From Candidatus Binataceae bacterium (GTDB lineage: Bacteria; Desulfobacterota; Binatia; Binatales; Binataceae): a stretch of 64,000 nt of DNA. The position numbers were made by a program, and so were the translations under genes. Each line of letters begins with the position of its first letter. Position 1 is the stretch's first letter. The DNA lies in assembly GCA_035541875.1 (NCBI GenBank), contig DATKML010000034.1, forward strand, positions 56,367-120,366, read 5' to 3'. A model generated the notes under the pieces. The model was not told where the DNA came from and made no database searches. It worked only from the letters and a program-made list of their open reading frames with translations. Positions 31,390 through 64,000 of the stretch are shown here, piece by piece.

Positions 31390-31416
31390 TTGGCACTCGA
31401 CTCTCGCGAGTGCCAA
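31390..31416 (+). promoter_or_regulatory. CIRCE inverted repeat (HrcA operator).
   Basis: The sequence TTGGCACTC-N9-GAGTGCCAA is a perfect 9-bp inverted repeat with a 9-nt spacer. It matches the TTAGCACTC-N9-GAGTGCTAA consensus and lies about 100 nt upstream of groES. Confidence 0.85.
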
Positions 31417-31519
31417 TTGACAAATCCGAAATCGTGATTAACTTACCCGCGGGGAAATTGGTTATCCCCGCAAATTAGACCAAAAACACAAAGAGCAAGT
31501 AGGAGGCTCGGGTCCGCTC

Positions 31520-31810: not shown

Positions 31811-31835
31811 GCGCCTACCAAGCGTAAATCACTGA

Positions 31836-33497
<1,662 letters not shown>

Positions 33498-37484: not shown

Positions 37485-37537
37485 TATCAGTAGTATATGT
37501 TTGCGAAGAGCCCTCGGTGGAGACGCCGGGGGCTCTT

Positions 37538-45302: not shown

Positions 45303-45374
45303 GCCCCGGTAGTGAAAAGGACATCACGGAGGTCTCCGGAACCTCAAGTCCGGGTTCGACTCCCGGCCGGGGCA
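45303..45374 (+). tRNA. tRNA-Arg (anticodon CCG).
   Basis: I folded it manually. The acceptor stem GCCCCGG pairs with CCGGGGC. The D-stem is GTGA/TCAC. The anticodon stem is GAGGT/ACCTC with loop CTCCGGA (U33, CCG, G37). The T-arm is CCGGG-TTCGACT-CCCGG with discriminator A. CCA is not encoded. Confidence 0.85.
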
Positions 45375-46087
45375 CTCAAATCAGTGAAATTCCTTGAAAG
45401 TAAAAGACTCTTTCCCGCAACGGCTACGGCGGGCGGCACGGTTTGGCTCAGGTTTGGCAGCGGCTGCAAAGGAACTGCCCGTTTTGGCAGCCGCGTGATG
45501 GCCAAAAAGAACGCATCGAGGTCGAGCGCCTTCGCCTCCGGCGTGCGCGTCCAACGCCCATAAACCTCGTCGATCTTCTTCACGCCGACGTGACCGAGCT
45601 GATGCGCGATCCATTACAGCGGCTTGTCCGCACAGATCATCAAAGTGGTGTAGGTGTGACGCAGGTTGTAGAGCACACGATAATCGACGCCGGCTCGTGC
45701 CACTGCGCGCCGCCACGGATGATCGCCCACGCTGCGCTCCAGCATCGGTCGCCCCTTCGGGCCGCAGAAAACGAACCGACTCCGGAGCCGATTGAGCACG
45801 AGTACGTCGAACAGCGCCAGCCTCACCGGCTCAAACATCTCCACCGTACGCCGTGAACTCTTCGTCTTGAGCCGGAGCGAGACCTCGCCCTTCTCGAGCA
45901 TCTGCTGGCGCACCAGGATCGTGCTCTCAGCGAAGTTGATATGATCAGGCATCAGAGCCAAAGCTTCGGACGGGCGCAGCCCGCTAAGCGCCAGCAGAAG
46001 GTAAAGCGCACGCTGTTGACCCTCACAGACGGCAAAGATCCGATTCCGTAGGATCGCCCTCCATATCGGCGGGCATGCGGTTAGCAC
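45344..46087 (-). pseudogene. Tyrosine recombinase (phage-type integrase) remnant. It is N-terminally truncated and frameshifted.
   Basis: ORF 45614-46087 carries the catalytic-domain LSGLRPSEALAL and LRHTYTTLMI (box II) motifs. The continuation with the catalytic Tyr (KKIDEVYGRW) lies in a different frame, 45344-45583. The 3-prime end overlaps the tRNA-Arg 3-prime half, and the N-terminal core-binding domain is missing. Confidence 0.7.
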
Positions 46088-46343
46088 GGTAAAAGAGCAC
46101 TTCGGCGGAGATTCCGATGATCTGTGCGAGCTGCTCGATCAGGTAGTTGGGTGGTGGACGCCGCCGGTCGTGTTCCACCGCGTTCAAGTAGGGCGCATCA
46201 ACCGGCCTTCCGTCTTCGCGCCGCAGACGTTCGGCAACCTCCTTTTGGGTTAATCCGGCCCGCTTGCGAGCCTCCGTAAGGATCGTCCCGAACGTTCTCA
46301 TACTTTCAGGTTTCTGCATTTCATTCAGGACTTCATCCCTCAA
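46023..46343 (-). CDS. XRE-family helix-turn-helix transcriptional regulator.
   Basis: The HTH is TFGTILTEARKRAGLTQKEVAERL. It is 106 aa and its 3-prime end overlaps the truncated integrase. Confidence 0.6.
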   Translation of the reverse strand: MRDEVLNEMQKPESMRTFGTILTEARKRAGLTQKEVAERLRREDGRPVDAPYLNAVEHDRRRPPPNYLIEQLAQIIGISAEVLFYRANRMPADMEGDPTESDLCRL

Positions 46344-46734
46344 TTACATCATCGACACTCCTTGAATTAAGCGGACGCGGTCTTGGAGCTTGAATTCCAC
46401 AATCTCACAACCAAGTCCAGATCGTCATGACTTCTCGCCGATGCTTAAACTTCGAGCACAGTCGACCCTCGCCTATACCCTCAGCAAACTAAGCGTAATG
46501 GCTTTGGCTTTCGTTTTATTATCTGATCTGCGATATGCGGTGCCCTCGTTGCAGCCACCACAATCAACCGCCGCTTCTCATCGCGCAATTGGTCAGCAAT
46601 CAGCCGCAAAACACGATGCAAAGAAAGCCTGATCGATCTCTCTCGGTTGTGACGCAATCGACGCAACTGAAGTCGTGTCCATAACAGCTTCGGTTGTCGG
46701 CTACAGTTTCGAAGACTCCCAACCAGGTCGATGT

Positions 46735-47649
46735 CTATTTTAGGTTAGGCGTTGGTGATGGAGGCGGATGAATCTGGAGTATCGCGGCCATCCGCGAAAG
46801 CTCTGCCAGCGAATCGCTACCCATTCGTCTTCGCAAACGAGCGCGATGCACCTTGACCGTTTGCTCGGTTATTCCCAACTCCGCAGCAACTTCTTTGTTC
46901 AGAAGGCCAGCAGTAATCAATATGAAGACCTCGCGCTGCCGAGGAGGTAAAGATTTGAAGCGTCGCTCAAGATCGAGGTGCTGAGCACGCGGGATCTTTT
47001 GTGCACGGGAGGGTCGGCTTTCGATTTTGGTCGCTGAGGCGGGTCCGGCGTTGATCTTCTCGCGGAAATCGTGTGTCGATAGCGCGGCGTGCTTGCGCTC
47101 GAGTGCGGCGGCAATTATCCGCCCCGCAATTCGTAGGCGCCGCAAGTCATTAGCCGACCATGCGCATTGGCCGCGAAACTTGCCAAATGTCAGACCACCC
47201 AACACTCGCTTCGCAACGTAAATAGGTAAAACGACCTGTGCCTTAGGGCCGTGAACCTTTAAGAAGTTGCGCAGCTTGACCGCTCTTTTCGGAAGTTCCT
47301 CGGGACTTGCGTAGACGACCGTTCGGCCGTCGAGGATTTGCGCTGTTATCCACGGCGATATTTGCATCGAGCGCATCTTGGGAGGCAACGGTGGAATTTC
47401 CGGCCTCGCCCACCAATAAGTGGCGATGAAGCCGACCTCCGAGCTTGCCCGCTCCCAGACGGCACCTCGGTCCAAATCGAGTGTAATGATCATCTCTCGG
47501 AGCCATCGCTCTATCTCTGGATCGATATCCTCAACTGAGGTGCTCTCGAGGGCACCCGACATTCGGTCAATAAGTTCCTCGAATTCGTTTCCTTCAGTCT
47601 CGGAAGGCTCATCCCGCCTACGCGTAACGATTTTCGCTTCTTCAGGCAT
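46735..47649 (-). CDS. LuxR-family transcriptional regulator with an N-terminal GAF-like sensory domain.
   Basis: The C-terminal HTH_LuxR is REVFILITAGLLNKEVAAELGITEQTVKVHRARLRRRMG. Confidence 0.7.
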   Translation of the reverse strand: MPEEAKIVTRRRDEPSETEGNEFEELIDRMSGALESTSVEDIDPEIERWLREMIITLDLDRGAVWERASSEVGFIATYWWARPEIPPLPPKMRSMQISPWITAQILDGRTVVYASPEELPKRAVKLRNFLKVHGPKAQVVLPIYVAKRVLGGLTFGKFRGQCAWSANDLRRLRIAGRIIAAALERKHAALSTHDFREKINAGPASATKIESRPSRAQKIPRAQHLDLERRFKSLPPRQREVFILITAGLLNKEVAAELGITEQTVKVHRARLRRRMGSDSLAELSRMAAILQIHPPPSPTPNLK

Positions 47650-47952
47650 AAAGATGATTCCGCTGCCGCGCTCCCATTACCGTTCCCAAAGACCTTCAAA
47701 GGCGCTCTTAAACTACTTTCGGCCAGCTCTCGTCAGATCTCAGAGCAACCGGATTAGCAAATTTTAATTACTCCGGGAGTACATCTAAAGTCTAACTAGA
47801 CTCGTGGATCGGGACCTAACGATAATCGCGCAGCGGCGCTGAAGGAGCACGTTTATTAATGCAGCTTGAATCCCTCCAGGAAATTAGTTGAGCGTAGACG
47901 CTCGTCAGCCGCTCTCGGGATGCGAACGAATGGGTCGGGAATAATTACGAAA

Positions 47953-49350
47953 ATGAGTTTGAAAGCGCCGCCGATACGGCCATCGACGGGGGCGTCCGCA
48001 CTAAGGGGCGCCCTTTTTGCAATATTCGCAGTTTTCGGAGTTTTGTCAGGCTGCGCACAAACCACTACACCTACACCGCTTCAGATGCAGCAGAACGCGG
48101 GGGTGAATCCAGCGCCAGCTCCTGCGGCGCCAATAGCGGTTCAGCCGCCGAACATGCCGTCGCCAGCTGCAGCGAAACCGGCAGGCCAGTTCGAACAACC
48201 GCCTGTGATTCCCATCAGCGATCTCCTCGCGGCGAGCATGCAATCCGGGCCGGGCTTTCAGGTTGGACAGCAAGTTGCAACTAACGGCGCGATGGGTGAG
48301 TACACCATAACGGCAAGCGCCGACGTGTTTCATGAAGACGCCGGGACCTATCAAGTCGAAAGCCTCGATTTGTTGAAAATTCGACTTTCTGAGGTTCCTG
48401 CGATCGCGCAACTGGACAATATGAGCAACTCGACGGTATTCGCCAAGGAGTTCGCTGTGAGCGCGGCACGTCCGCTGACAGCTGCCGGGCAGATGGTGAT
48501 TCATCCCATGGATACGATCACCGGATTGCCGAGCGGGATAGGCGAATTTTTCGGTCGCGTCGACCTGGGCGCCAAAAGTCTTGCGGCCAGCTCTTCGGTG
48601 AGCCAAGCGGCCGCTCAGACCGGCGATGTCACGCTCACGGCTTTGGGTTACGACCAAGTCCGGCGGGATCTGGCCCGTAAGCTGCACGTTGATCCGTACA
48701 GCTCCGATCCGATTCTGACCAAGCGACTTAATCATGTCGCTTGGGTGATGTTCTCTGCGCGTATTACCGTCGATGCCGCAATGATGGCGGTGCCCGCATC
48801 GATGATCATCACTGGCACCGAGTTTACCGACGATCTCGTCTATCAAACACCGAAAGCTGACCTGATCCTTCTCGTCGAAAAGAAGCTCACGAGCTTTGGA
48901 TTGTCGAAAACAGAAATCGCTACCTTCACGCACAACAACGCAATCCCCTTGAGCCTACAAGTTGCGGCGGTCCGGCAACTCGATGGTCTTGGAGTCATTC
49001 CGGGACGGCGCACGGCGGCCGTGGCACTGGGCAATGCGCTGACGGAGTATCAGGCGCGGTTTCTCGTGACTTCGCTGAGCATGCTAGGTCAGTGGAGTAC
49101 ACAGAAGAGTCCAATCAACAAAATTCAGGTCACCGGGGTGCTCGTGGCGCGCGATCAAAACGGCACGACGATAATACCCGCGCCCGTCGATTATCTCTCA
49201 TGGACGCCCCGCATCGCCGGTTTCGCGACCAACTCGCAGTTACTCGCAAAACAAAATCGCGTGCTCTGGATCACCGGCAAAATGACCGCGCTCGCGCAGC
49301 AGCAACTGACGGCGAGTGGTTGGACTGTTCAACAAGGGTCGCAACTTTAG
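47953..49350 (+). CDS. Hypothetical lipoprotein with a Pro-rich linker.
   Basis: The lipobox is FGVLSGC after a hydrophobic signal, followed by a PAPAP-rich linker. The start is trimmed to the ATG at 47953. Confidence 0.5.
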   Translation: MSLKAPPIRPSTGASALRGALFAIFAVFGVLSGCAQTTTPTPLQMQQNAGVNPAPAPAAPIAVQPPNMPSPAAAKPAGQFEQPPVIPISDLLAASMQSGPGFQVGQQVATNGAMGEYTITASADVFHEDAGTYQVESLDLLKIRLSEVPAIAQLDNMSNSTVFAKEFAVSAARPLTAAGQMVIHPMDTITGLPSGIGEFFGRVDLGAKSLAASSSVSQAAAQTGDVTLTALGYDQVRRDLARKLHVDPYSSDPILTKRLNHVAWVMFSARITVDAAMMAVPASMIITGTEFTDDLVYQTPKADLILLVEKKLTSFGLSKTEIATFTHNNAIPLSLQVAAVRQLDGLGVIPGRRTAAVALGNALTEYQARFLVTSLSMLGQWSTQKSPINKIQVTGVLVARDQNGTTIIPAPVDYLSWTPRIAGFATNSQLLAKQNRVLWITGKMTALAQQQLTASGWTVQQGSQL

Positions 49351-49493
49351 TTAACCAAAACGCAATAAGCGACCTCTATCACGGCGGCTGTGCTGCCATA
49401 AACTCTAACCAATTGATTGCGGGGCTTCTCTGCATTTCTGGCAAGTGCATGCAAGTAGAGTTAGATCAACCTTATTTTAGAGAGGATGGAATA

Positions 49494-50255
49494 ATGGCTA
49501 ACGAACCGGCGAAACTTCTAACGGGCCTGCTATCCGCGACACTCGCTGGATGGCTGCTCATGGGGTGCTCGCAGACCACGGCGCCCGCGCCCAACATCGT
49601 TCAGCGGGTAGAAGGCGAGACGCCTGCGCCACCGCCACCCAGCGGCTTTCTCGGTAGCGACTATGCGCTATTGAAGCCGCCCGCTGAAGGATCCGACCAG
49701 AAGGCGATGCTCGTCTACACGGACGCGAGCGCGAGCTTCGCTTCCTACAGCAAGATCATGATCGCGCCAGTCACCTTTTGGGGCGATGAGCACTCGAACC
49801 TCTCAGCCGCCGATCAACAGACCCTCTGCGACTATTTCTACAACGTGTTGAAAGAAGAACTGGGCAAGAACTTTACTTTAGTGAATGAACCCGGCCCCGG
49901 TGTTGCCAAGTTGACCGTCGCGTTGACCGACGCCAGCTCAGCGATTCCCGTGCTGCGTACGATCGCGGTAGTGGTGCCTCAAGCTCGTGTGCTCAGCATG
50001 ATCAAGCAGGGGCTGACCGGGACCTATTCATTTGTCGGTTCGGCTACGGGAGAAGCCAAGCTGACCGATTCGGTGAGCGGACAATTGCTGGCGGCCTGGT
50101 CTGATAAGCGATTCGGTAGTGGCGCGCTCAAGAATGTGACGGTCTGGCAATGGGGCGATGCCGACAATGCGATGAACTACTGGGCCGACGGCCTTGATCA
50201 GCGCTTGGCGACATTAGGCATCCAGCATACCGCTACACCAGCGGCGACCAAATGA
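49494..50255 (+). CDS. Hypothetical lipoprotein (DUF3313-like architecture).
   Basis: The ATG at 49494 is preceded by AGAGGA. The lipobox is LLMGCS. The listed N-extended ORF 49092..50255 overlaps the previous gene and is rejected. Confidence 0.5.
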   Translation: MANEPAKLLTGLLSATLAGWLLMGCSQTTAPAPNIVQRVEGETPAPPPPSGFLGSDYALLKPPAEGSDQKAMLVYTDASASFASYSKIMIAPVTFWGDEHSNLSAADQQTLCDYFYNVLKEELGKNFTLVNEPGPGVAKLTVALTDASSAIPVLRTIAVVVPQARVLSMIKQGLTGTYSFVGSATGEAKLTDSVSGQLLAAWSDKRFGSGALKNVTVWQWGDADNAMNYWADGLDQRLATLGIQHTATPAATK

Positions 50256-50286
50256 TATCACCCATCAAAGATCCAAGGAGACAATT

Positions 50287-52017
50287 GTGACCAAGCGAAT
50301 GAAAACCTGGAAGTGGCGGGTTGTCGGCGCCGTCCTGATCGCCACCCTGTCGCTGGCGGGGTTGACGCACCGTCTTTCTGCGCAGGCTTCCTCAGACAAA
50401 CCCAACATTCTGTTCGTCATGACCGATGACGTAGGTTGGATGACGCCGGGAGTCTACCACCAAGGCCTGATGGTGGGTGAAACCCCCAACATCGACCGTA
50501 TCGCTAAGGAAGGCGTGAAGTTCCTGGACGCCTACTCCGAGCAGAGCTGCACAGCCGGGCGTAACGCCTTCATGACCGGCATGAACCCGCTGCGTACGGG
50601 CCTGATCGTTCCGCAATTGCCCGGCAGCCCGAGTTGGCTGCGGTCCGGCACACCTTCGCTTGCCAAAATTCTGCTCGACCTCGGCTATAACACAGGCCAG
50701 TTCGGCAAGAACCATCTGGGCGACAACGTAGAGGCGCTACCGACCGCGCACGGCTTCCAGGAGTACTGGGGTTACCTCTACCACCTAGACGCGATGCAGC
50801 AGGTGAGCTTCCCCGATGTCTACAAAGACAAGGACACGATCGGCGTCGCCCCGCCGTGCAAGGCGACCTCGATCCCCGGCGTCCCCGACGATCCTAATGC
50901 GGTGGACCCGGCGACGACGACCTGTCTAACGCCGCCGCGGCCCGTACTTTGGTGTCACTCCGCGGACGGCACGCAGGCCAAACAGACCTGCAAGGATGAG
51001 GGTCCGGTTACTGACGTTCGCTCAGAAACCCTGGAGGAGGAGGTTTCGGCGAAGGTGATCGACTTCCTGGACCGCAACGACCCCAAAAAGACCGGCAAGC
51101 CGTTCTTTGCGTACTACAACACGGTGCGGATGCACGTCGACACGTTTCTGCCTAAAAAATACCTCGACATGCTGGGCACGCGGGGTGGCAAGGACTGGGG
51201 CATCAACGAAGCTGGCGAGAAGCAGATGGACGACAACCTCGGCTACGTGCTGAAGAAACTCGAGGACATAGGCCAGCTCGACAACACGATCATCATTTGG
51301 ACCTCTGACAACGGCGCCCAGACCCAAACCTATCCGGACGGCGGGATCACCCCCTTCAAAGGCGATAAGCTGACGACTTGGGAAGGCGGGATGCGCGTGC
51401 CGTTGCTTGTGCGTTGGCCAGGACACATCAAGCCTGGTACGGTCACAAACCAGATTTTCTCGATGCTGGATTGGTTGCCTACGCTGGTCAACATTGCGGG
51501 TGGCCCCAAGGGCGACGGTCTAAAGAAAAAGATCGAGGCCGGCCAGTATCCGGGCTTCTTGAAGACCACGCTCGACGGTTTTGACCAGCGTGATTTCCTG
51601 GAAGGCAAGTCCGATTCCGCGCGCGACCACCTCTTCTACTACACGGGCACCATACCGTCAGCAGTGCGGTATAAGAACTGGAAAATGTACTATACGATGG
51701 AAGGCTCGACATCCGCAGGCGCGCTCAAAGGGGCCCAGAGCTATGGCTGGACCCAGATGACCAATCTAATGCGGGATCCGTTTGAGCAGAATGTCGGCGA
51801 TGTTCAAAAGTCGGCCACGTCGATCGGTGGCGCGATTACCTCGCCGAGCACAGCTTACCTCTATGACTGGCAGATGCTGCCCATAGGGCAGTTGCTGTGG
51901 ATGAAGGAACTCGAGACCTACCGGAAGTTCCCACCGTTGCAAGTACCGGCGTCCTACAACCTCGACGAAATCGAAAAGTTGATCGCAGCCCAGGCAAGCC
52001 ACTCGCATAGTGATTAA
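50287..52017 (+). CDS. Arylsulfatase (formylglycine-dependent sulfatase family), secreted.
   Basis: It has a signal peptide. The sulfatase signature is SCTAGRNAFMTG (C-x-A-x-R). The metal ligands are MTDDVGW. Confidence 0.85.
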   Translation: MTKRMKTWKWRVVGAVLIATLSLAGLTHRLSAQASSDKPNILFVMTDDVGWMTPGVYHQGLMVGETPNIDRIAKEGVKFLDAYSEQSCTAGRNAFMTGMNPLRTGLIVPQLPGSPSWLRSGTPSLAKILLDLGYNTGQFGKNHLGDNVEALPTAHGFQEYWGYLYHLDAMQQVSFPDVYKDKDTIGVAPPCKATSIPGVPDDPNAVDPATTTCLTPPRPVLWCHSADGTQAKQTCKDEGPVTDVRSETLEEEVSAKVIDFLDRNDPKKTGKPFFAYYNTVRMHVDTFLPKKYLDMLGTRGGKDWGINEAGEKQMDDNLGYVLKKLEDIGQLDNTIIIWTSDNGAQTQTYPDGGITPFKGDKLTTWEGGMRVPLLVRWPGHIKPGTVTNQIFSMLDWLPTLVNIAGGPKGDGLKKKIEAGQYPGFLKTTLDGFDQRDFLEGKSDSARDHLFYYTGTIPSAVRYKNWKMYYTMEGSTSAGALKGAQSYGWTQMTNLMRDPFEQNVGDVQKSATSIGGAITSPSTAYLYDWQMLPIGQLLWMKELETYRKFPPLQVPASYNLDEIEKLIAAQASHSHSD

Positions 52018-52046
52018 CCGTGCAGCGCGCGCCTGCAGCTAGAAGC

Positions 52047-52075
52047 GGGCGACCCTAAGAGGGTCGCCCTTCGCG
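52047..52075 (+). terminator. Hairpin after the sulfatase gene.
   Basis: GGGCGACCCT-AAG-AGGGTCGCCC is a 10-bp stem. The downstream T-tract is imperfect. Confidence 0.4.
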
Positions 52076-52164
52076 CTTTAGAGAGGACGTACTAGTACCT
52101 AACAACGCACCTCCGGTTGCTCCGGGATCAGCACGGAGGTTAACTCAACACAGGAACTAAGCCA

Positions 52165-53202
52165 ATGATGAGATCACTTACCCGTGCCCGTCCCTCTCAG
52201 ACGGCTACGGTATTAGCGCTCCTGATCACGCTGCTGGCGGCGCGAGCGAACGCTCAGAATGACCCACTGCCGTCCTGGAACGAGGGCCCGGCCAAGCAGT
52301 CAATCATAACCCTCGCGAAGGATGTCACGGATAAGTCGAGCCCCTCGTATGTAGAACCACAAGATCGCATCGCCACCTTCGACCAGGACGGGACTCTCTG
52401 GGTTGAACACCCGATATACACACAGGTGGCCTTCGCGCTTGACCGTGTGGTGGAATTGGCGCCGAAGCATCCGGAGTGGAAAGCCACTGAGCCCTTCAAG
52501 GCGGTTCTCACTGACGACAAAGCCGCCATGGCCAAGTTTACGCTCCGCGACTTCGAAAAGATTATTTTCGCGACCCACACTGGCATGACCGTGGAACAAT
52601 TCAATGCGATCGCCAAGGATTGGATCGCCAAAGCCAGAAATCCGCGATGGAAGAGGCCCTATACTGACCTTGTATATCAGCCGATGCGAGAGGTTCTCGA
52701 CTATCTGCGGGCTAATGGCTTCAAGACCTACATCGTTACGGGGGGTGGTCAGGACTTCGTTCGGTCTTACGCGGTGCAAACCTACGGCATACCGCCCGAG
52801 CAGATTATTGGGTCGGCGCTCGAGACCGATTACACCTATAACAAAGAAGGTCAGGGGATATTGATGCGGCCTCCCAAGGTGTTGCTTAACAACAACTTCT
52901 CGGGCAAGCCGGAAGACATCTATCTGTTCACCGGGCGTCGTCCTCAGGCCACATTCGGCAATTCGACTGGCGACAGGGAGATGCTGGAATACACCCAAAC
53001 TGGCGGCAAGGAGGCGTTGATGATGCTGGTACTTCACGATGATCCGACCCGCGAGTATGCCTACGGCCCGGCTCAAGGGCTGCCGGATACCAAGGTCGGT
53101 ACTTTTTCGAAGGCACTGTATGACGAAGCGAGGACCCGAGGCTGGAACGTCATCAGCATGAAAAAGGATTGGAAACGAATCTTCGCCTTTGACCCCCAAT
53201 AG
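52165..53202 (+). CDS. Secreted HAD-superfamily hydrolase (putative phosphatase).
   Basis: It has a signal peptide. HAD motif I is FDQDGTLW. The later motifs are YIVTGGG and FGNSTGD. Confidence 0.65.
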   Translation: MMRSLTRARPSQTATVLALLITLLAARANAQNDPLPSWNEGPAKQSIITLAKDVTDKSSPSYVEPQDRIATFDQDGTLWVEHPIYTQVAFALDRVVELAPKHPEWKATEPFKAVLTDDKAAMAKFTLRDFEKIIFATHTGMTVEQFNAIAKDWIAKARNPRWKRPYTDLVYQPMREVLDYLRANGFKTYIVTGGGQDFVRSYAVQTYGIPPEQIIGSALETDYTYNKEGQGILMRPPKVLLNNNFSGKPEDIYLFTGRRPQATFGNSTGDREMLEYTQTGGKEALMMLVLHDDPTREYAYGPAQGLPDTKVGTFSKALYDEARTRGWNVISMKKDWKRIFAFDPQ

Positions 53203-53259
53203 ACCAGACTGATATCGCCCTCGGTCCAGCGGGCGACAACACCGACTTCGAGGATACTG

Positions 53260-55341
53260 ATGAATCTGAGTGCCGTTTTTCGCTGTGTCCGAGCAGCAAG
53301 CCGATTGTGCCTTGCGATTTCGGTCGTGATGTTCGCAATCTCAGGGTTTGGCCGGGCTTGCGCGGCCGACAGCATTGAAGGTCGCGTGCTTGGCGGAGGC
53401 GCGCCGATCGTCAAATCAACTGTGACCCTATGGTCCGCGAGTGCCGATGCGCCCAAGCAGTTAGCGCAGACACAGACCGGCGATAACGGTCACTTTACGC
53501 TGAGCGCAGAGGGATCCGCTGATGGCAGCCTTTATCTGGTGGCGACCGGCGGGGAGCCCACTGCCAATAGGGGCGGCGGGAACAACCCGGCGATTGTGCT
53601 CATCGCTGTCCTCGGCAGCAAACCGCCGGCCAAAGTCACGATCAACGAGTTCACGACCGTGGCCTCGGTGTGGACTAACGCCCAGTTTCTGGAAGGCAGC
53701 GTACTCCAGGGTCACGCGCTAGGGTTGCGAATCGCGGCCGGCAATGTGCCCAATTTCGTCGACCTCGGGAGCGGCGGTTACGGGCCGATGATTGAGGACG
53801 CCCTCAACAGCAGCCAGACCCCGACGATGGCGAATTTTGCCACCCTCGCCAACGTATTGGCGGGTTGCGTCACACAGGTGAAGGCTGATGCCTGCAGCAG
53901 CTTATTCGCTGCGGCGACGCCCCCGAGCGGACAGGTTCCGATCGATACGCTGACTGCGGCTGAGTCAATCGCTCGGAATTCTGCGTACCAGCCGAGTAGG
54001 ACGTTCGCATTGCTGAATACCTTTTATCCAGTTCCGAAGGGTAAGCAGCTACGCGTTACGCCGTTTCTGCCCTATCTTAGCTTCGCCCCGAGCGCGTGGG
54101 TCTTGCCTCTTAAGTTCGCGGGCGGTGGTTACATCGGTGGCGCCAAAGTGATGTTCGACAGTGAAGGTAACGCATGGAGCGGCGCCAATTTCATAGTTGG
54201 TTCGCAGGGGCACGATGCCCTCTGGGACGGCAATATGTCGGAGTTCGCTCCGAATGGCCGACCGCTTTCGCCGATGACTACGGGCTTTCATGGCGGCGGT
54301 CTGCAAGGCCCCGGGTTCGGTACCGCGATTGACGCCAACGACCGCGTCTGGATCGACAGCACCAGCGGAAGGACGATCTCGCTGTTCGACCACCAGGGTC
54401 AGCCGCTGTCGCCGCCTGAGGGCTACAACTTCGGCGGGAAGCTCGGCTACATGCAGGGCGTTATCGTTACGCCCAGTGGTGACGTCTGGGCAGTCGATTT
54501 CACCAACGACAGGGTGGTGTTCATGCCCAAGGGCGATCCTGCCAAGGCCAAGTTCTATTGCGAGTCGACGAACGGTAAACCCAACAAGGACAGTCCGTGC
54601 AAGTTGAGCGGCCCGTTCCATCTTGTCATCGACCAGCAAGACCGGATTTGGATCGACAACGCGATCGGCGACACCGTGACCCGCTTCCCCGCGAGCGATC
54701 CCACCAAAGCCGAAGTGTTTCCAACTGGCGGCCACAGCGGCAAGGGTATGGCGGTCGACAGCAAGGGCAATGTCTGGATCACCAATACGTTGGGCGCTGG
54801 GATGACGCTCGCGACAAAACTCAAGCTGCTCGACCTGAAGCTCAGAGGGCGGATGGCAGACGCCGATCAACTGGTCCTCAGGAATCTGTTGGCGAAGCCC
54901 GGTTTAGGCAGCGTGTCGATGCTGCGACCAGACGGCAGCCCCGCACCGGGATCACCGTTCAATCCAGGCAGCATCTGGGGTGCTTGGGCTGTGTCGATAG
55001 ACGGTAACGACCACGTCTGGGTTTCCAATTTTGCGCCCGGCGGCGGCGTCAGCGAGTTGTGCGGTGCACGTACTGAGACCTGTCCGCCCGGCATGAAGAC
55101 CGGTGATCCGATTTCCCCGCCCGGCGGCTACAAGGGCGGTGGAATGCAAATGCTGGTGGATGCCTCGATCGACCCGGCTGGCAATGTCTGGGTGTCTAAT
55201 AACTGGCAGGATCCCGCGTCTTGCTACGGCAAGCCGGATGAGAGTCTTTCCACCCGCTGCGGCGGCCAAGGCATGACGGTCTTCTACGGCATGGCCAAGC
55301 CGGTGCGCTCGCCCCAGATAGGCCCAGCCCGCGGGTTCTAG
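53260..55341 (+). CDS. Secreted protein with an N-terminal carboxypeptidase-regulatory-like domain and a six-bladed NHL/Vgb-lyase-like beta-propeller.
   Basis: It has a signal peptide. An early GRVLGGGAPIVKSTVTLW beta-sandwich motif is present. Blade motifs recur: DRVWIDS, GDVWAVD, DRIWIDN, GNVWITN, DHVWVSN, GNVWVSN. Confidence 0.6.
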   Translation: MNLSAVFRCVRAASRLCLAISVVMFAISGFGRACAADSIEGRVLGGGAPIVKSTVTLWSASADAPKQLAQTQTGDNGHFTLSAEGSADGSLYLVATGGEPTANRGGGNNPAIVLIAVLGSKPPAKVTINEFTTVASVWTNAQFLEGSVLQGHALGLRIAAGNVPNFVDLGSGGYGPMIEDALNSSQTPTMANFATLANVLAGCVTQVKADACSSLFAAATPPSGQVPIDTLTAAESIARNSAYQPSRTFALLNTFYPVPKGKQLRVTPFLPYLSFAPSAWVLPLKFAGGGYIGGAKVMFDSEGNAWSGANFIVGSQGHDALWDGNMSEFAPNGRPLSPMTTGFHGGGLQGPGFGTAIDANDRVWIDSTSGRTISLFDHQGQPLSPPEGYNFGGKLGYMQGVIVTPSGDVWAVDFTNDRVVFMPKGDPAKAKFYCESTNGKPNKDSPCKLSGPFHLVIDQQDRIWIDNAIGDTVTRFPASDPTKAEVFPTGGHSGKGMAVDSKGNVWITNTLGAGMTLATKLKLLDLKLRGRMADADQLVLRNLLAKPGLGSVSMLRPDGSPAPGSPFNPGSIWGAWAVSIDGNDHVWVSNFAPGGGVSELCGARTETCPPGMKTGDPISPPGGYKGGGMQMLVDASIDPAGNVWVSNNWQDPASCYGKPDESLSTRCGGQGMTVFYGMAKPVRSPQIGPARGF

Positions 55342-55451
55342 TTTCTGAACACACCAAAGGTGACCCAGGGCACGGGATCGCAAGCTCGATCAGACTGATC
55401 GAATTGTCGGACGTAACCGGACGTAACTACTATAAGAGCGGAGGCTGTTTT

Positions 55452-56315
55452 TTGAAATTTCGATGCACGAGGGCGATTGTTCTGGTCGGGCTTCTTGGCA
55501 TGGTGCTCGTTGCTCCCGTCTCGGCGCAAGCGAACGACGACAAATCGCTGGACGAAGTCAACAAGCAGCTCTCGAATCCGATTTCGAGCATCTGGGCACT
55601 ACAGCTTCAGGAGAACACCTACTGGCTGAACAACCCCGAGCGTAACGCGGTGAACCTTCAATTTCAGCCGGTGCTACCGTTAGCACTGACTGACGATTGG
55701 AATCTAATCACGCGGCCGGTGTTCCAGGTAATGAACTCTTCGCCGTACGTCAACGAGACCGGTAATCTTCATCGCGTGACCGGCTTCGGTGACACGATCC
55801 TGGCGACGATGCTCTCGCCTAGTCCGAAGCTAGCGGGTCCGTGGCTGCTGGGCGCAGGTCCTAGTTTCATCCTTCCTACCGCGAGTAATTCTCGCCTTGG
55901 GCAGAACAAATGGCAGTTGGGGCCGTCAGGCGTGTTCGGTTACCTGGGCGACAAATGGATCGCCGGCGTATTTCCCCAGCAGTGGTTCTCGGTCGGTGGC
56001 CCAGGTCCTCAGACCGTTAGTCAGATGAACATCCAGTACTTTTTCCAATATTTTCCGGGCAAAGGCTGGGGCATCGGGACGTCACCGAACATGCTCGTTA
56101 ACTGGTATGCCAGCAAGAGCGCGAACGACATTACGTTTCCTATCGGGATGCAAATCAGCAAAGTGATCAGGATTGGCCCGCTTCCTGTGAAATTTGCCGT
56201 TCAAGGCCAGTACATGCCCGTCCATCCGGAGGAATTCGGCCAGAAGTGGAATCTACAGTTCGCGGTGACTCCGGTTATCCCGAAGCTGATCAAAGGGAAT
56301 CTCTTCGGCGATTGA
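55452..56315 (+). CDS. Outer-membrane beta-barrel protein (transporter-like; MetA/phenol-pathway OMP-like).
   Basis: The TTG start at 55452 follows GGAGG. The signal peptide is MKFRCTRAIVLVGLLGMVLVAPVSAQA. It shows an alternating amphipathic strand pattern and a C-terminal aromatic residue. Confidence 0.5.
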   Translation: MKFRCTRAIVLVGLLGMVLVAPVSAQANDDKSLDEVNKQLSNPISSIWALQLQENTYWLNNPERNAVNLQFQPVLPLALTDDWNLITRPVFQVMNSSPYVNETGNLHRVTGFGDTILATMLSPSPKLAGPWLLGAGPSFILPTASNSRLGQNKWQLGPSGVFGYLGDKWIAGVFPQQWFSVGGPGPQTVSQMNIQYFFQYFPGKGWGIGTSPNMLVNWYASKSANDITFPIGMQISKVIRIGPLPVKFAVQGQYMPVHPEEFGQKWNLQFAVTPVIPKLIKGNLFGD

Positions 56316-56383
56316 CGCACGCTGGCAATGTGGCGTTGAAACAAACCGACTTTGACAGCTGTTTCGTCCAAGGACAAAGCAAT

Positions 56384-57169
56384 TTGCACTACTTCAAGCG
56401 AAATCCTTCCCGCGTAATCTCGCTGTTTCTCATCAGCGTTTTGCTGCTCACCACTCGGTCCGCTCGTGCACAGGGGGTTGTGCTCCCACTCCCGGCAGCG
56501 GATCAGCAGATGATCTCTGCTCAGCTTGGTCCGGGTATCGTGGGCGCCGCATTGCCGAGTGTTCCGATCGCGGACGTTTCGACTTACTTTCCACTTCAGG
56601 AGAAAGCTTCGAACTATCAGGTCACAAGTGGTCCGAACGTTGGAAACACGCAAACACTTGGCCTCGCCAAAGTCAGACGTCCGGGCGGGAAGCTGGCTTG
56701 GCGCTTTCAGTTTTCGCCCTCGCTGGCTGGCTTCATCAAGCAGACTGCGCAGGGCGACCTGATTATCCCGGCTGTCGGCGACATGGCGGAGGGCGTGGTG
56801 GTTATCACCACGCCGGCCAATCCCTTTATGCTCAAAGGCATGAAGCCCGGCGAATCCCGGTCTTACACGCAACAGGTCGTGGTTAATGCGCTGGATGACC
56901 CGGCGAACCAAGAATACTCAGGGTCATTAAACGGGATCTACACCTACCTGGGAACGTACCAGGTGAAAGTACCGGCCGGCAGCTATGCGGCCGTGCTTCT
57001 ACGTCTGAAGTGCGAAGGCAAGGTCGGTCCGGCCCAGACCAACGACACAGCTTATTACTTCTTCGCGCCCGGCAAGGGCATGATAGCAATGATCAGCCAG
57101 GAGGATGCGACCGCATTCTGGATAATCCATATCGACACCACATCCGGCAAAGTGCTTACGGCCAACTGA
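56384..57169 (+). CDS. Hypothetical secreted protein.
   Basis: An internal TTG start yields the signal peptide ...RVISLFLISVLLLTTRSARAQG. The listed N-extension overlaps the upstream gene. Confidence 0.45.
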   Translation: MHYFKRNPSRVISLFLISVLLLTTRSARAQGVVLPLPAADQQMISAQLGPGIVGAALPSVPIADVSTYFPLQEKASNYQVTSGPNVGNTQTLGLAKVRRPGGKLAWRFQFSPSLAGFIKQTAQGDLIIPAVGDMAEGVVVITTPANPFMLKGMKPGESRSYTQQVVVNALDDPANQEYSGSLNGIYTYLGTYQVKVPAGSYAAVLLRLKCEGKVGPAQTNDTAYYFFAPGKGMIAMISQEDATAFWIIHIDTTSGKVLTAN

Positions 57170-57266
57170 GTAGCCTCACTAAATAACTCCAGGGTCCCGC
57201 CTTCAGGTTGGTCTTCCTCCAATATTTCCTTTCGATCTGAATCGCGTCAGCAACCGCGGCGACCCT

Positions 57267-57728
57267 ATGGACATACAAATGCAGTCAGCCACCATAGGCG
57301 CCTGGAGTGGCAACTGGGCTTGGAGCCTCCCAATAATCGTTCTCAACGTGATGATTCACGTGACGGTCCTCGCTTTCGTCAACGAAAAGCTCGACGGCGT
57401 AATGAGCGGTGTAGTGGGTCGTCGGGACCGTATGCCGCGATTCGCACTGGTTATGGGCGCGACGACTCTATTGGCGACAATGCTTCATGGGATTGAGGCA
57501 TTCATCTGGGCGGCTGCATACCGCGCTTTGGACTCTTTACCCGACTACAAATCCGCGATGCTTTATTCGCTCAGCGCAATGACGAGTTATGGTCACGCGA
57601 ATCTATATCTCGATCCCCAGTGGCAAATGATGGGTGCTCTAGAAGCGCTGAACGGAATGCTGCTACTCGGATTAACCACCGCCTTTCTGTTCTCGATGAT
57701 CCGGAAGATTTCACAGGCCCCTGGGTAG
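57267..57728 (+). CDS. Small membrane protein with a two-TM pore-domain-like topology (ion-channel-like).
   Basis: It has TM1, then a pore-helix-like LYSLSAMTSYGHANLY (compare K-channel TMTTVGYGD), then TM2. The filter is degenerate. Confidence 0.4.
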   Translation: MDIQMQSATIGAWSGNWAWSLPIIVLNVMIHVTVLAFVNEKLDGVMSGVVGRRDRMPRFALVMGATTLLATMLHGIEAFIWAAAYRALDSLPDYKSAMLYSLSAMTSYGHANLYLDPQWQMMGALEALNGMLLLGLTTAFLFSMIRKISQAPG

Positions 57729-57885
57729 AATTGGACATAGCAATGACTGAGGTTATACGGGCGAGCATTGTGTCGCTGCCTCCGCTGGCAAAATTCGCGG
57801 TCGGAATGTCGATAATTGTGGTCGTGCCGCCGCTTTGTCGTCGCATCAAGCTATCGGCAGGGCACCGAGGCGTTGTTTACTGCTC

Positions 57886-58314
57886 TCATCCAGTATGATG
57901 GAGTGGGTTCACTGAGCTTTGGACGCTGCCTTGAGCCATCAACCAAGGACCGCCCACGGGCTGGTCGGGATCGTAACCGATGATTTCGACTTGCTCCTCG
58001 GCGCCGTCACGCAGCTTCAGGAAGCCCCAACTCAGCATAATCGGCTTCGCCCAGAGTACTTCCGGAAGAGTCGCAACCCTCTTAACACTGGCGTCGTTGA
58101 AGAGCTTGGCGAAATCGACGTTGCGAATGCCCTTTGAGGCGATCCAGATATCGGCTCCTGAAGCGTGGCGGATGAGCGAGGTCGCGTTGCCCATCATCCC
58201 GATGTACAGGCCTACCTCAACGATAGTTAAGAACGGCGATATGACTACTCCGCCCAGCGTGACCGCGAGGCGTAAGCGATTGTAGAGACTCATCCGCAGC
58301 GCCAGCCATAGCAC
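57886..58314 (-). pseudogene. Truncated DevC/FtsX-like ABC transporter permease (N-terminal 142 aa only).
   Basis: The N-terminal TM plus the start of the periplasmic domain (LWLALRMSLYNRLRLAVTLGGVVISPF...GADIWIASKG) resemble DevC/MacB-type permeases of about 390 aa. The ORF ends prematurely and no continuation exists in any frame. Confidence 0.5.
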
Positions 58315-58341: not shown

Positions 58342-58953
58342 TCAGTGGGCCGATGAGTGCGCCGGAGCATCCCAGGCGACGTGTCCAACTGCCGTCACAT
58401 CGAGGTCGACCTGTTTGGCTACGGAAAGGAAAAGGATGCTCGGATCTTTCATGCCCCACGCCACATAAGGGATCACAAACTGGGTATGAGCCGTGAGTTC
58501 ATTGCCCACTAACTTGCCTTGTAGATCGATACCCTGTGGATGCTCCATACCGTGGATTAGGAGAGTTCCGTCGAGGTGAGCAGAAAAGTAACCGTCCTCG
58601 CCGAGGGAGCCAGTCACATGACGAGCGGTAAAGACGATAGTCGGATACTTGGAGGATTCAAGCACCTCGCGGTTCATGTTTGCGTCGCGCGAGGGCATCT
58701 GGCTGTCGCCGCTGGTTGCATCAATTACTACGGACCCATTCGCTGTGCTTGTTGTGGGATCGGCAGCGATCGTTCCCTGCGTAAGCTTGAACGTACCGTG
58801 AGTATCGTGGAGCGCACCCGGTAAGCTGAACTGGATGATAGTTCGCGCGGGATCGAGCGTGACGGTTCCAGCGCGTGGTTCGGCTGCTAAAGCGTGGCTA
58901 CGCCAACCGAGCGAGGCCGCGACGTAGAGGCAGGCAACGCTCCTATATAACAT
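58342..58953 (-). CDS. YceI-like periplasmic (polyisoprenoid-binding) protein.
   Basis: It has a signal peptide and an 8-strand lipocalin-like YceI pattern. It overlaps the upstream aminotransferase by 11 nt. Confidence 0.7.
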   Translation of the reverse strand: MLYRSVACLYVAASLGWRSHALAAEPRAGTVTLDPARTIIQFSLPGALHDTHGTFKLTQGTIAADPTTSTANGSVVIDATSGDSQMPSRDANMNREVLESSKYPTIVFTARHVTGSLGEDGYFSAHLDGTLLIHGMEHPQGIDLQGKLVGNELTAHTQFVIPYVAWGMKDPSILFLSVAKQVDLDVTAVGHVAWDAPAHSSAH

Positions 58954-60304
58954 TGATTACCCGCCGGGCCGTGTTCAGTGCCTCCGTCCAGAAGCTGGTC
59001 GAACTATGCATCAGATCGACTACACGCTCGAGCGCATCGGCGAACTGCGCCAATTGCGCTTCGGTGATCACGAGCGGTGGTGCAATCTTCAAGACCATGA
59101 AATTGTTGCCGCAAATCTGGCTGAAGATACCTTCGCGAAACAGCCGCATCACAACGACCTGGCCAAACATCGCGGGATGAATCCGGGCAAAGGCTTCGAA
59201 CAGGATACGCAAACGGAGTTTTTTGGGTGCACGAAACTCGATTCCGGAGAGCATCCCGCGACCGCGAATGGCTTTGATCATGTCGTATTTCTGAAAGCGT
59301 GAGGTGAGGTTCTCGCGGAAGCGCTCACTCATACGCTCCGCGCGCGCACCGAGGTCACCGTCCATGAGAACCTCCAGAGTGGCCAATCCCGCACGCATCG
59401 CGAGTCCGTTTTCACCGTAAGTCGATGCATGAATCATTGATCGCTTGAAAGAGGTGAAGACGGAATCGTAGATCGGATCCCTCATCAGCACTGCCGCTGA
59501 CGGCACCAGTCCCCCACTCATCGCCTTGGCCATGATCACCATGTCCGGCTCGACACCGAAATGGTGTGCGGCAAGGAACGGTCCCGTCCGAAACATCCCG
59601 GTCTGAACCTCGTCGAGCACCATCAAAGTGCCATATCGTCGGCAGAGTTCGGAGGCCTTTTGCAGATAGTCTGCCGATGGCACGAGCACACCTGACTCGG
59701 CCTGAATCGGCTCAAGGATAAAAGCGCCAAAGCGGCGCGATGCCAAGCGAGTCTTCAGCGCTTCCAAATCACCGAAGGGGACCGGCTCGGTGTCGGGCAA
59801 CAACGGACCAAAATCGGCCGTCCAGAACGGGTTATCCATCAAAGATAGCGCACCGCAGGTCAAGCCGTGAAAGCCACCCGAGGCATACAGGATGCCGGGA
59901 CGTTTGGTGTGAGCGTGGGCGAACTTGATGACCGTTTCGACCCCTTCACTCCCGGAGCTGCAAAAATAGACTTTGGATAACTTACCGCCGGCATTGGTAC
60001 AAAGTCGCAACGCTAGTTCGCCGGCCAGTTCAGGAACATGACCCTGCAACATCGCGGGGCCGTTGCCGTCAAGTTCCTCCTTTAGGGCGCGAATCACCGC
60101 CGGATGATTGTGGCCGATATTGTGCACGCAGTAACCGGAATTGAAATCGAGGATGCTGCGTCCATCTTCAGTGTAAAGCTCAGCACCGAGACAGCTCTTG
60201 TAGCGCACATTCATATCGAGAACGTCCAGGAACCGCACCCATTGGGGATTAACGTGATTCTCGTAGGGTTCCTGACTATTGGCGGGCAGTTTGGAAGCGA
60301 GCAT
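58943..60304 (-). CDS. Class III PLP-dependent aminotransferase.
   Basis: The PLP-Lys region is DEVQTGMFRTG...MAKAMSGG and the fold-type I class III pattern is present. Confidence 0.85.
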   Translation of the reverse strand: MLASKLPANSQEPYENHVNPQWVRFLDVLDMNVRYKSCLGAELYTEDGRSILDFNSGYCVHNIGHNHPAVIRALKEELDGNGPAMLQGHVPELAGELALRLCTNAGGKLSKVYFCSSGSEGVETVIKFAHAHTKRPGILYASGGFHGLTCGALSLMDNPFWTADFGPLLPDTEPVPFGDLEALKTRLASRRFGAFILEPIQAESGVLVPSADYLQKASELCRRYGTLMVLDEVQTGMFRTGPFLAAHHFGVEPDMVIMAKAMSGGLVPSAAVLMRDPIYDSVFTSFKRSMIHASTYGENGLAMRAGLATLEVLMDGDLGARAERMSERFRENLTSRFQKYDMIKAIRGRGMLSGIEFRAPKKLRLRILFEAFARIHPAMFGQVVVMRLFREGIFSQICGNNFMVLKIAPPLVITEAQLAQFADALERVVDLMHSSTSFWTEALNTARRVINVI

Positions 60305-60347
60305 AAGAAATTTACCTCTTATCGCGAGTGCCGCACTCGGACATTGA

Positions 60348-60806
60348 TCATTGCGGACCAGAACTAATCTGTGTCGCCAGCCACGCGCGCAGAGCCTGTT
60401 TTTCAGCGTTGCTCAGGCGCGCACTATGATCGAGCACTGTGTAGTTTCCGGGCGGCATCGAGCCGTTATTGATCGTCGATTCGATACTCTTCAGTTGGGT
60501 CTGCTGATGATGTGCGTCGTAGGTCGACCAATCTGAAAAATTGAGAGCCTGCCGCGCGGAACCAGCAGCCATGTAAGCTGGAGATAGAGCTGCGTACCAC
60601 GGCGCAGTGCCTGTCGTGCTGTGGCAGGTGTAGCACGATCGTTCGAGAATCTGATGAATGCGCGGATCTGTCGTAACTCCGCCATGCGAGGAGTTCGCGA
60701 GCTTCGTCGGCACCGATGAACTCTCCTGGGGTGTCGAACAAGCAGAGAGAAAAGATGCTCCAGCGACAACAAACAGTAGTCCGCAAAGGGGGCTGCGTTT
60801 GATCAT
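60348..60806 (-). CDS. Haem-binding-domain lipoprotein (CxxCH; Haem_bd-like).
   Basis: The lipobox is FLSACS. The single CYTCH motif is followed by a conserved W/Y-rich stretch. Confidence 0.6.
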   Translation of the reverse strand: MIKRSPLCGLLFVVAGASFLSACSTPQESSSVPTKLANSSHGGVTTDPRIHQILERSCYTCHSTTGTAPWYAALSPAYMAAGSARQALNFSDWSTYDAHHQQTQLKSIESTINNGSMPPGNYTVLDHSARLSNAEKQALRAWLATQISSGPQ

Positions 60807-60865
60807 GATAAATCAGCCATTCCTCATTGTCGGATGGTGTGCGATCGGTGAAGCCTTTCGACTCA

Positions 60866-63387: not shown

Positions 63388-64000
63388 TGAGCGCCTCAAT
63401 TCCAACGACCCCAATGTTTCTCGAAGGGACGGGTGGCCTTCGGTTTTTCCGGGCACAGGAGCGTGATTTCGCGACTCTCAACCTGATGCTTATCGCGGCA
63501 GTTCTGGTAATGCAGATCCTTTCGCGAATCGAGCAAGGAAAGCCGACGACATCGCATATATTAGTGTTGAGCGTCGGGCTCTTTGCGCAAACGGCACAAT
63601 TGTTTTGGCTCGCGAACGAAGGTCCCGAGTTGTCGCCAGCCAAGCGCCGCTTTCTACCTTTCTGGATCATCGGGCTGAACTCCGCCCTCGCACTGACGCT
63701 GAGTTCACTCGAAATCGGTGGTGACACCGCCTATTACGCTCTGATGCTTCTGCCAATCCTCGAGTCTGCCTTCAGGCTAACGTTGGCCTGGACAGCAGCA
63801 GTGGTCGCGCTCGCAGACCTTATCTGCTTCACGGGAGCCTATGGCCTGAAGTTCGATGAATACCTGGAGGCGAGCGCCTCGACGATAGTATTCACCGTCA
63901 TGGGAGTACTGGTTTGGTTGCTAGTGGATGGTCTCCGCAAAGGCGAAGCCGGTTTCATCAGCAACTTGAAGGAGCTTGAACGCGCCAGAGAACGGCTGCT
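63388..64000 (+). CDS. Membrane sensor protein (probable sensor histidine kinase N-terminus); the 3-prime end runs off the window edge.
   Basis: The frame is open from ATG 63388 to the window edge, with at least 5 hydrophobic helices followed by a coiled-coil linker (LKELERARERL). It is divergent from the PKS operon. The listed minus ORF 63368..63727 is the antisense image. Confidence 0.45.

Follow-up and report, generated by a model that had tools for sequence, protein, structure and literature searches.

A probable decayed genomic island of about 24 kb at the 3' end of tRNA-Arg(CCG) in an uncultured Candidatus Binataceae bacterium

Genomic islands integrated at tRNA genes by P4-like or ICE-type tyrosine integrases include the pathogenicity islands found at tRNA loci of Enterobacteria and ICEclc, which resides at tRNA-Gly. 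Their att cores cover the 3' part of the tRNA. A second kind of described element, the CIMEs, known from the ICESt-type elements of streptococci, are cis-mobilisable: they are flanked by att sites and carry no recombination genes. Within the 64,000-nt stretch of Binataceae DNA that we have analyzed (the window), a locus next to a tRNA-Arg(CCG) gene resembles the tRNA-integrated islands in its insertion at the 3' end of the tRNA, its direct repeat of the tRNA end as attL and attR, its integrase gene abutting the tRNA, its atypical composition and its mosaic cargo. It also shows a decayed integrase, which is frequent among them. It differs from them in its host, an uncultured Candidatus Binataceae soil bacterium (Binatota), in its target, in the integrase facing the tRNA with its 3' end rather than its 5' end, and in its cargo, which is metabolic, secreted and regulatory instead of virulence-related. 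With CIMEs it shares intact att repeats without a working integrase, and tandem att arrays are found in relatives (L042 and L171). Unlike CIMEs, it still holds a recognisable integrase pseudogene, and mobilisation in trans is here only a candidate reading. The locus is very likely a decayed genomic island of ~24.1 kb, the remnant of an ICE/IME-type integrative element, a reading supported by the flanking repeats, the lesions of the pseudogene, homologous intact elements and a shift in composition. As such, it is an ordinary case of a well-known kind of element, with its boundaries corrected.

The target, tRNA-Arg(CCG) (45303..45375, plus strand), is the sole tRNA gene in the window and is intact according to ARAGORN and Rfam (62.1 bits), its 3' end having presumably been rebuilt by the element. 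Its last 29 nt, AGTCCGGGTTCGACTCCCGGCCGGGGCAC (45347..45375, plus strand), form the attL core. A perfect direct copy of this core occurs on the parent contig at window-equivalent positions 69,495-69,523, past the end of the window; it is assigned as attR, and no tRNA gene was found there. Identity between the parent contig and the window is 99.95-99.99% (about 12 SNPs in 30 kb), and the attR junction was also recovered at 100% identity in an independent JGI contig (L083). Even when allowing 8 mismatches, these are the only two copies of the core in 72.9 kb. Since attL and attR are 24.1 kb apart, the island spans from 45,376 to about 69,494 (window-equivalent), and its right end falls 5.5 kb past the window. 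The original prediction had given it ~12.5 kb and had proposed that a direct repeat of the tRNA end be sought at 46-60 kb, where none was found. In the window there was neither a second copy of the 22-nt tRNA end with up to 3 mismatches nor an exact direct repeat of at least 13 nt from the tRNA and the following 45 nt, and no degenerate internal att site was detected in the island (up to 8 mismatches in 29 nt; 17-nt sub-cores were also tried). Because attR is outside the window, a repeat search confined to it gives a false negative and, taken alone, would wrongly refute the island.

As predicted, a tyrosine integrase gene follows the tRNA directly on the opposite strand (ARAGORN, Rfam and Pfam). 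It is a pseudogene (45381..46042, minus strand), delimited by Pfam, by its translation, by alignment with the integrases of two related loci (L032 and L055) and by tblastn. The catalytic domain is present (Phage_integrase, E=8e-11, profile positions 10-141 of 172), and the N-terminal ~215 aa that hold the arm-binding and core-binding domains of intact homologues are gone. An in-frame TAA at 45614-45616, between the LRH and LGH...Y boxes, replaces a conserved Gln. A complete tyrosine recombinase of the arm-binding type would have both N-terminal domains and a catalytic domain uninterrupted up to the Tyr nucleophile, and the remnant has neither. Of the two defects predicted earlier, the N-terminal loss is real and the frameshift is not: the remnant is colinear with its homologues in one frame, with this single in-frame TAA. 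The stop codon is fixed in 6/6 contigs of the same population, and SNPs are clustered in the remnant. The XRE-family HTH regulator that had been said to overlap it does so by 65 nt (46023..46343, minus strand; Pfam HTH_31/HTH_3), and its C-terminus is fused through a deletion to integrase-derived sequence, with the junction at about 46038. In three of the six population contigs, a 1-nt deletion at 46142 puts this XRE gene out of frame.

Intact homologues of the integrase are encoded in L032 and L055 (447 and 474 aa; 58-59% identical over the catalytic domain), with Arm-DNA-bind_2 and Phage_integrase domains and in the same position and orientation beside tRNA-Arg(CCG). The L032 element (Deltaproteobacteria/Binataceae MAG, JAKAVN010000098.1) also encodes a TrwC relaxase, a TrwB-type coupling protein, an XRE regulator 50% identical to ours and a Peptidase_M78 (ImmA-like) protein, whose gene stands between the XRE and integrase genes. 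No tRNA-derived repeat that could represent attR was found for these two elements on their short contigs. Our island shares with them the target, the integrase family, the XRE homologue and an 11-nt doublet repeat about 70-95 nt from the core; unlike L032, it has no full Arm-DNA-bind_2 integrase, Peptidase_M78, TrwC or TrwB, and its cargo is unrelated. By Pfam, no relaxase, coupling protein or type IV secretion component was detected among the island genes, and no phage structural, packaging or lysis domain in any of them. No excisionase was found in the island either.

The doublet, ACGGTTTGGCTCAGGTTTGGCAGCGGCTG (45438..45466, plus strand), consists of two 11-nt-spaced units. A second copy, matching at 27/29 positions, is found at window-equivalent 69,357-69,385, 109 nt inside attR; with up to 6 mismatches permitted, 72.9 kb of sequence gave no further match. 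The same doublet recurs at the same distance from the core (66/77 nt) in both L170 and L171, and other integrase types have doublets of their own. The motif looks like a pair of arm-type integrase sites (P' arm), and its match at both ends suggests that they belong to one integrase specificity. The attL-side motif is within the 3' coding region of the integrase, so its conservation could partly reflect coding constraint.

We then compared the locus with its relatives. Scanning the GTDB species representatives with the inositol monophosphatase of the left flank returned 80 loci. In about 40 loci from Binataceae this gene still adjoins tRNA-Arg. Synteny of the left flank is seen in about 35-45 Binataceae loci, none of which carries the island genes downstream of the tRNA, and the content found there differs in every clade scanned. 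In the closest relative (L169, 87%), homology ends 6 nt past the tRNA. In the comparison with related genomes proposed originally, the island genes are absent from this position in about 40 relatives, but a precise empty site, in which the p51/luciferase right flank would come directly after the tRNA, was not found by any of four search routes. All six contigs of the same population, retrieved by protein search with the inositol monophosphatase, carry the island, and the nearest other species (L169, L084 and L039) are rearranged at the island site. With the right-flank luciferase as query, a metagenome scan returned L083, which holds the attR junction of the same strain, and relatives that lack the tRNA (L084). 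By blastn, the intergenic part of the right flank (214 nt) matched the same strain only, and no circular junction was seen.

The composition of the island is shifted, to a modest extent. Its GC content is 57.1%, compared with 59.6% and 60.0% in the left and right flanks (the core had been put at ~65%), and it is uniform among sub-blocks (56.6-57.4%). GC3 is 0.657 vs 0.715 in the core (p=5.6e-4), codon-usage distance also separates island from core (p=1.3e-4), and the tetranucleotide distance is about twice that of the core, with the strongest deviation at 48-60 kb. The non-uniform GC and codon usage anticipated earlier extends across all 24 kb: the genes at 58-69 kb deviate as well, and both GC3 and codon usage are back at the core level directly after attR. 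As to the low-GC stretches pointed out at first, the 1-kb values of 0.53-0.57 at 46-49.5 kb are not distinctive, since several stretches of the core reach the same level. The att pair, the integrase pseudogene, the intact homologues and the GC3 and codon shift together support the prediction of a tRNA-integrated island without mobility of its own.

From these observations a history can be proposed. The element would have entered the 3' end of tRNA-Arg(CCG) by site-specific recombination, catalysed by a tyrosine integrase whose N-terminus held an arm-binding domain. The element itself would have supplied a copy of the tRNA's last 29 nt; hence the tRNA is intact at attL, and a partial 29-nt copy marks attR. 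Mobility may then have been lost in two steps, whose order we infer: a deletion of ~1.7 kb that would have taken the N-terminal half of the integrase, fused the remainder to the XRE gene and probably removed an ImmA-like gene as well, and a Gln-to-stop mutation in the catalytic domain. What remains is a mosaic cargo made up of a secreted-protein cluster under LuxR control, a type III PKS operon, a sigma-54 system, a PLD-type nuclease and BrnTA, a toxin-antitoxin pair at the attR end that may help to retain the island. In keeping with this account, BrnTA homologues adjoin repeated tRNA-end sequence in L042 and in L044.

The cargo begins with a GAF-LuxR (GerE) transcription regulator (46735..47649, minus strand; Pfam; GC3 0.584), divergent from a plus-strand run of eight genes (47953..57728; Pfam and called genes). 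These encode an unknown lipoprotein, a DUF3313 protein, a sulfatase, a HAD hydrolase, a 693-aa NHL/beta-propeller-like protein, an outer-membrane-like protein of 287 aa, an unknown protein of 261 aa and a membrane protein of 149 aa. Signal-peptide, lipoprotein and outer-membrane-like products are all represented, so the regulators and secreted or outer-membrane proteins predicted downstream of the integrase are indeed there. The tetranucleotide distance of this block is about 2x the core value. It is followed by a truncated MacB/DevC-type permease (57886..58314, minus strand), of which the N-terminal 142 aa are left (MacB_PCD positions 2-109 of 207, E=2.9e-4), with no FtsX domain by Pfam. Next comes an operon for a type III polyketide synthase, a FAD monooxygenase, a haem-binding protein, a class-III aminotransferase and YceI (58342..62934, minus strand; Pfam), with GC3 of 0.59-0.66 vs a core mean of 0.715. 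A histidine kinase gene (63414..64000, plus strand; called genes on L081 and L082) runs past the window end, and beyond it the parent contig carries a sigma-54 response regulator, a 682-aa PLD/NgoFVII-like nuclease, BrnA, BrnT and attR. The sigma-54 two-component system is divergent from the type III PKS operon. When the 682-aa nuclease was checked for a role in defence, PADLOC returned just a weak ZacB match (E=3.6e-5).

Since the cargo is a mosaic that includes a truncated permease, not all of it need have come in one event. One could argue that the island is a composite, formed by accretion of successive elements or cargo blocks at the same tRNA with later loss of the internal att sites, in which case the integrase/XRE end and the BrnTA/attR end may come from different original elements. 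We consider this a possibility of some weight, though the less probable account. In its favour, relatives show tandem arrays at the same tRNA: in L042 there are three att copies, two of which enclose nothing but BrnTA, L171 shows the order tRNA, islet, att, integrase fragment, and L172 has two integrases in tandem. In addition, the truncated permease would mark an internal junction, and the gene for the 693-aa protein is elsewhere accompanied by mobile genes, with IS91 and integrase genes on its flanks in Rhodoblastus. Against accretion stand the lack of any internal att remnant, the near-identity of the arm-like motif at both ends and the uniform GC of the sub-blocks.

A further reading is that the island is not dead but CIME-like. 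Its att cores match perfectly (29/29) and it has kept the arm motifs (27/29), so that a putative cognate integrase encoded elsewhere in the genome or in the community could mobilise it in trans, and the island may still be a cis-mobilisable cassette. Related integrases with up to 86% identity are present in metagenomes. However, the site was occupied in 6/6 population contigs with no empty site or circular junction seen, the island has no excisionase, and we regard such mobility, which we deduce from sequence features, as unlikely. An equally doubtful extension would make tRNA-Arg(CCG) a Binataceae-wide accretion hotspot served by one integrase family, with arm-site doublets co-varying with integrase type, and the 24-kb island a cassette still mobilised in trans by intact relatives, spreading the type III PKS operon and the secreted-enzyme cluster among uncultured Binatota.

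The extent originally proposed, 12.5 kb starting at the tRNA, with the right boundary at the truncated permease (57,885) and native chromosome beyond it, is very improbable. The permease is truly truncated and the tetranucleotide deviation does peak at 48-60 kb, but no att-like sequence exists near 57.9 kb with 8 mismatches in 29 nt allowed, the genes at 58-69 kb share the low GC3 of the left part of the island (0.59-0.66), none of them is near the tRNA in relatives, and a perfect attR is found at 69.5 kb. The truncated permease is instead the scar of a rearrangement inside the island, at the point where the PKS operon has its 3' end. Least credible of all is that there is no island, the 29-nt copy being a tRNA duplication leftover or a chance match, the integrase an unrelated relic and the genes ordinary variable chromosome: the missing empty site and the generally non-conserved content downstream of this tRNA across Binataceae would agree with it, but a perfect 29-mer is expected by chance about 1e-13 times in 73 kb and this one covers exactly the 3' part of the tRNA, the arm-like motif is common to both ends, the compositional shift coincides with the repeat boundaries, and homologous elements are integrated likewise in relatives.

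The chief value of these results is a corrected annotation, with an island of 2x the reported size and a boundary visible only beyond the window; they leave the current understanding of genomic islands unchanged. A literature search on Binatota and "genomic island" returned nothing relevant. The locus would document horizontal acquisition at a tRNA hotspot in this phylum, which is known only from metagenomes, of a sigma-54-regulated type III PKS operon, a LuxR-regulated secreted-hydrolase cluster, a PLD-type nuclease and a BrnTA module. A small integrase family with recognisable att cores and candidate arm sites could also help to delimit islands in other Binataceae MAGs. Among the cargo, the 693-aa protein has homologues with 72-87% identity across phyla.

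The only tRNA gene in the window, tRNA-Arg(CCG) (45303-45375, forward strand), is directly followed on the opposite strand by the remnant of a tyrosine integrase, as originally predicted; the remnant matches the Phage_integrase catalytic domain on the minus strand (Pfam, E=8e-11, profile positions 10-141 of 172). The original prediction also ended the island at 57,885 and proposed looking for a repeat of the tRNA end between 46 and 60 kb. That search fails: within the window there is neither a second copy of the 22-nt tRNA end, at up to 3 mismatches, nor any exact direct repeat that reaches 13 nt. The copy lies only beyond the window end, on the parent contig, which was identified by exact protein matching (ENA ERZ27256510 k141_1969905, 244 kb, whose overlaps with the window are 99.95-99.99% identical). 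There, the final 29 nt of the tRNA, AGTCCGGGTTCGACTCCCGGCCGGGGCAC, recur as a perfect direct copy at window-equivalent positions 69,495-69,523, 5.5 kb past the window end, with no tRNA gene at this site of the parent contig. We define this copy as attR and the 29-nt end of the tRNA itself (45347-45375) as attL. With this pair of sites, and no degenerate att site detected internally, the island measures about 24.1 kb. The truncated permease (MacB/DevC) taken as the boundary is present (57886-58314), but it is a scar within the island, at the 3' end of an operon on the minus strand. The attR junction is identical in an independent JGI metagenome contig (L083), in the order luciferase, right-flank ORFs p192 and p51, attR, BrnT and BrnA. 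From these sites, attB is predicted to join the tRNA body, the 29-nt core and CAATCGTCCGAGG, and attP to join GACTGCCGCG, the core and TCAAATCAGTG.

Both ends of the island carry a candidate arm-site doublet, GGTTTGGCnnnGGTTTGGCA. At 63 nt inside attL we found the 29-nt motif ACGGTTTGGCTCAGGTTTGGCAGCGGCTG, made up of two GGTTTGGC units spaced 11 nt, in a position that overlaps the 3' coding region of the integrase. A copy matching at 27 of 29 positions lies 109 nt inside attR, and no further match occurs in 72.9 kb. The same doublet is present 66 and 77 nt from the core in two related loci (L170 and L171), and the more distantly related integrase types carry 11-nt doublets of their own, at comparable distances. 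Given the paired motif and the presence of Arm-DNA-bind_2 in the intact homologues, the doublets fit putative P and P' arm-type sites. At this tRNA, each integrase type shows its own tandem repeat of 11-nt period, some 60-95 nt away from the end of the tRNA: AAATTCTTGGC three times in L016 (4560-4700), ACTTGGGCAGA twice in L032 (4184-4320) and in L172, and ATTTGTGGCAG twice in the first islet of L171.

The composition of the island differs from that of its surroundings, with a GC content of 57.1% vs 59.6% in the left flank and 60.0% in the right flank, a tetranucleotide distance about twice the core value, a GC3 of 0.657 vs 0.715 (Mann-Whitney p=5.6e-4) and a distinct codon usage (distance from the core, p=1.3e-4). 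This deviation covers the genes at 58-69 kb and vanishes immediately to the right of attR. The expected shift in GC and codon usage does exist over the correctly delimited island, but low GC is not peculiar to the stretches first singled out: the window averages about 59% GC, not the 65% assumed for the core, and several core stretches fall as low. Among these, 27500-32000 and 36500-37500 have a GC of 0.51-0.55, as low as any part of the island, with a raised tetranucleotide distance; the core genes around them encode a radical SAM protein, GroEL and a small Flp/Fap pilin (about 37290-37484).

Regarding the integrase, translation of the three minus-strand frames gave one single frame running from '...RIFAVCEGQQRALY...' to the C-terminus, broken by one in-frame TAA (45614-45616, 'KPL*WIAHQLGHVGVKKIDEVYGRW') at a position where both intact homologues have Gln. 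The lesion is therefore a nonsense mutation, and the frameshift proposed earlier is ruled out. The N-terminal loss described in the same proposal is borne out, since the remnant begins at about residue 218 of the homologues and lacks the arm-binding and core-binding parts. The XRE regulator gene (46023-46343) does overlap the remnant ORF. Homology to the XRE of L032 (MAG contig JAKAVN010000098.1) extends almost to the end of the gene and integrase homology starts at about 46039-46042, which places a deletion junction at about 46038. In L032, a Peptidase_M78 (ImmA-like) gene lies between the integrase and the XRE, so an ancestor laid out in this way would have lost an estimated 1.7 kb. The remnant frame has no stop ahead of the tRNA; in L032, the intact integrase ORF enters the opposite-strand tRNA gene and its stop codon lies 34 nt inside it (L032:4150-4183).

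Six contigs from different samples of one study, with identical inositol monophosphatase genes, all carry the left end of the island. The TAA stop is present in all six, and in three of them the XRE is frameshifted by a 1-nt deletion at 46142. SNPs among the six contigs (45400-46142) cluster in the integrase remnant, with 5-7 per ~330 nt vs 1 per ~1300 nt in the left flank. This pattern is consistent with a module that is fixed and decaying under relaxed selection.

The DNA comes from a MAG population of Candidatus Binataceae (Binatota). Left of the tRNA, the window contains a housekeeping core (SMC, IF-2, PtsP, GroEL, FBPase and homoserine dehydrogenase), and this flank, with the inositol monophosphatase/tRNA-Arg(CCG) adjacency, is kept in dozens of relatives. 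None of them has the genes of 46.7-69.4 kb downstream of the tRNA, where content varies by clade and several contigs end at the tRNA. At two loci (L032 and L055), an intact integrase that is 58-59% identical and combines Arm-DNA-bind_2 and Phage_integrase domains occupies the same position, in the same orientation. Since the L032 element also encodes a relaxase (TrwC) and a coupling protein of the TrwB type, it is an ICE or an IME. Nearer integrase relatives (74-86% identical) are often fragments adjoining the same tRNA, as in L170 and L171. Besides, in L042 (7464-11060) the 3' end of the tRNA occurs three times, and BrnA/BrnT alone separate the second copy from the third; L171 (2955-5649) shows the order tRNA, 2.6-kb islet, att and integrase fragment; and L172 (1-3671) has two tandem integrases, the second frameshifted. 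These intact integrases, fragments and tandem att arrays identify tRNA-Arg(CCG) as a site of recurrent integration and decay in the family. In L169, from the closest other species, the place directly downstream of the tRNA is taken by a type III polyketide synthase that shares 52-55% identity with that of the island, with no integrase (5890-7005).

A precise empty site was not found among relatives or contigs of the same population. L169 (inositol monophosphatase 87% identical) has different genes after the tRNA, L084 (luciferase 94% identical) has the right flank with no adjacent tRNA, and in L039 the right-flank genes lie 6-8 kb from the tRNA and inverted. The evidence for the boundary is consequently the att pair, together with the arm motif and the step in composition, and not a presence/absence polymorphism. 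The core of the original prediction stands, corrected in extent, type of integrase lesion and GC baseline: this is an island inserted at a tRNA gene whose integrase is dead, an element of a well-known kind, here in an under-studied phylum.

Between attL and attR lie, in this order, the integrase pseudogene, the XRE, a GAF-LuxR regulator, eight forward-strand genes for exported proteins (a lipoprotein of unknown function, a DUF3313 protein, a sulfatase, a HAD protein, a 693-aa beta-propeller-like protein, an outer-membrane-like protein and two unknowns), the permease fragment, five minus-strand genes (YceI, class-III aminotransferase, haem-binding protein, FAD monooxygenase and type III PKS), a divergent histidine kinase and sigma-54 response regulator, a 682-aa PLD/NgoFVII-like protein and, at the attR end, BrnA and BrnT. 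No conjugation, excision or phage genes were found among them. Mobilisation of the island in trans, which would make it a CIME in an accretion hotspot shared by the whole lineage, is possible but unlikely. Homologues of the 693-aa protein number more than 3000 across phyla, at 72-87% identity, and in Rhodoblastus its gene is flanked on both sides by pairs of IS91 transposase and integrase; at least this part of the cargo therefore moves horizontally. The gene (53260-55341) has no Pfam domain, its product is named 'streptogramin lyase' by some sources, homologues occur in Binataceae, Accumulibacter, Rhodoblastus and Rhodopila, and it tends to be accompanied by a homologue of the outer-membrane-like gene (55452-56315). 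Finally, the luciferase-like monooxygenase of the right flank (window-equivalent 69,897-71,222; L082:1713-3038 on the parent contig) is split by an in-frame stop into ORFs of 243 and 192 aa, and its L084 orthologue is one intact protein of 442 aa.
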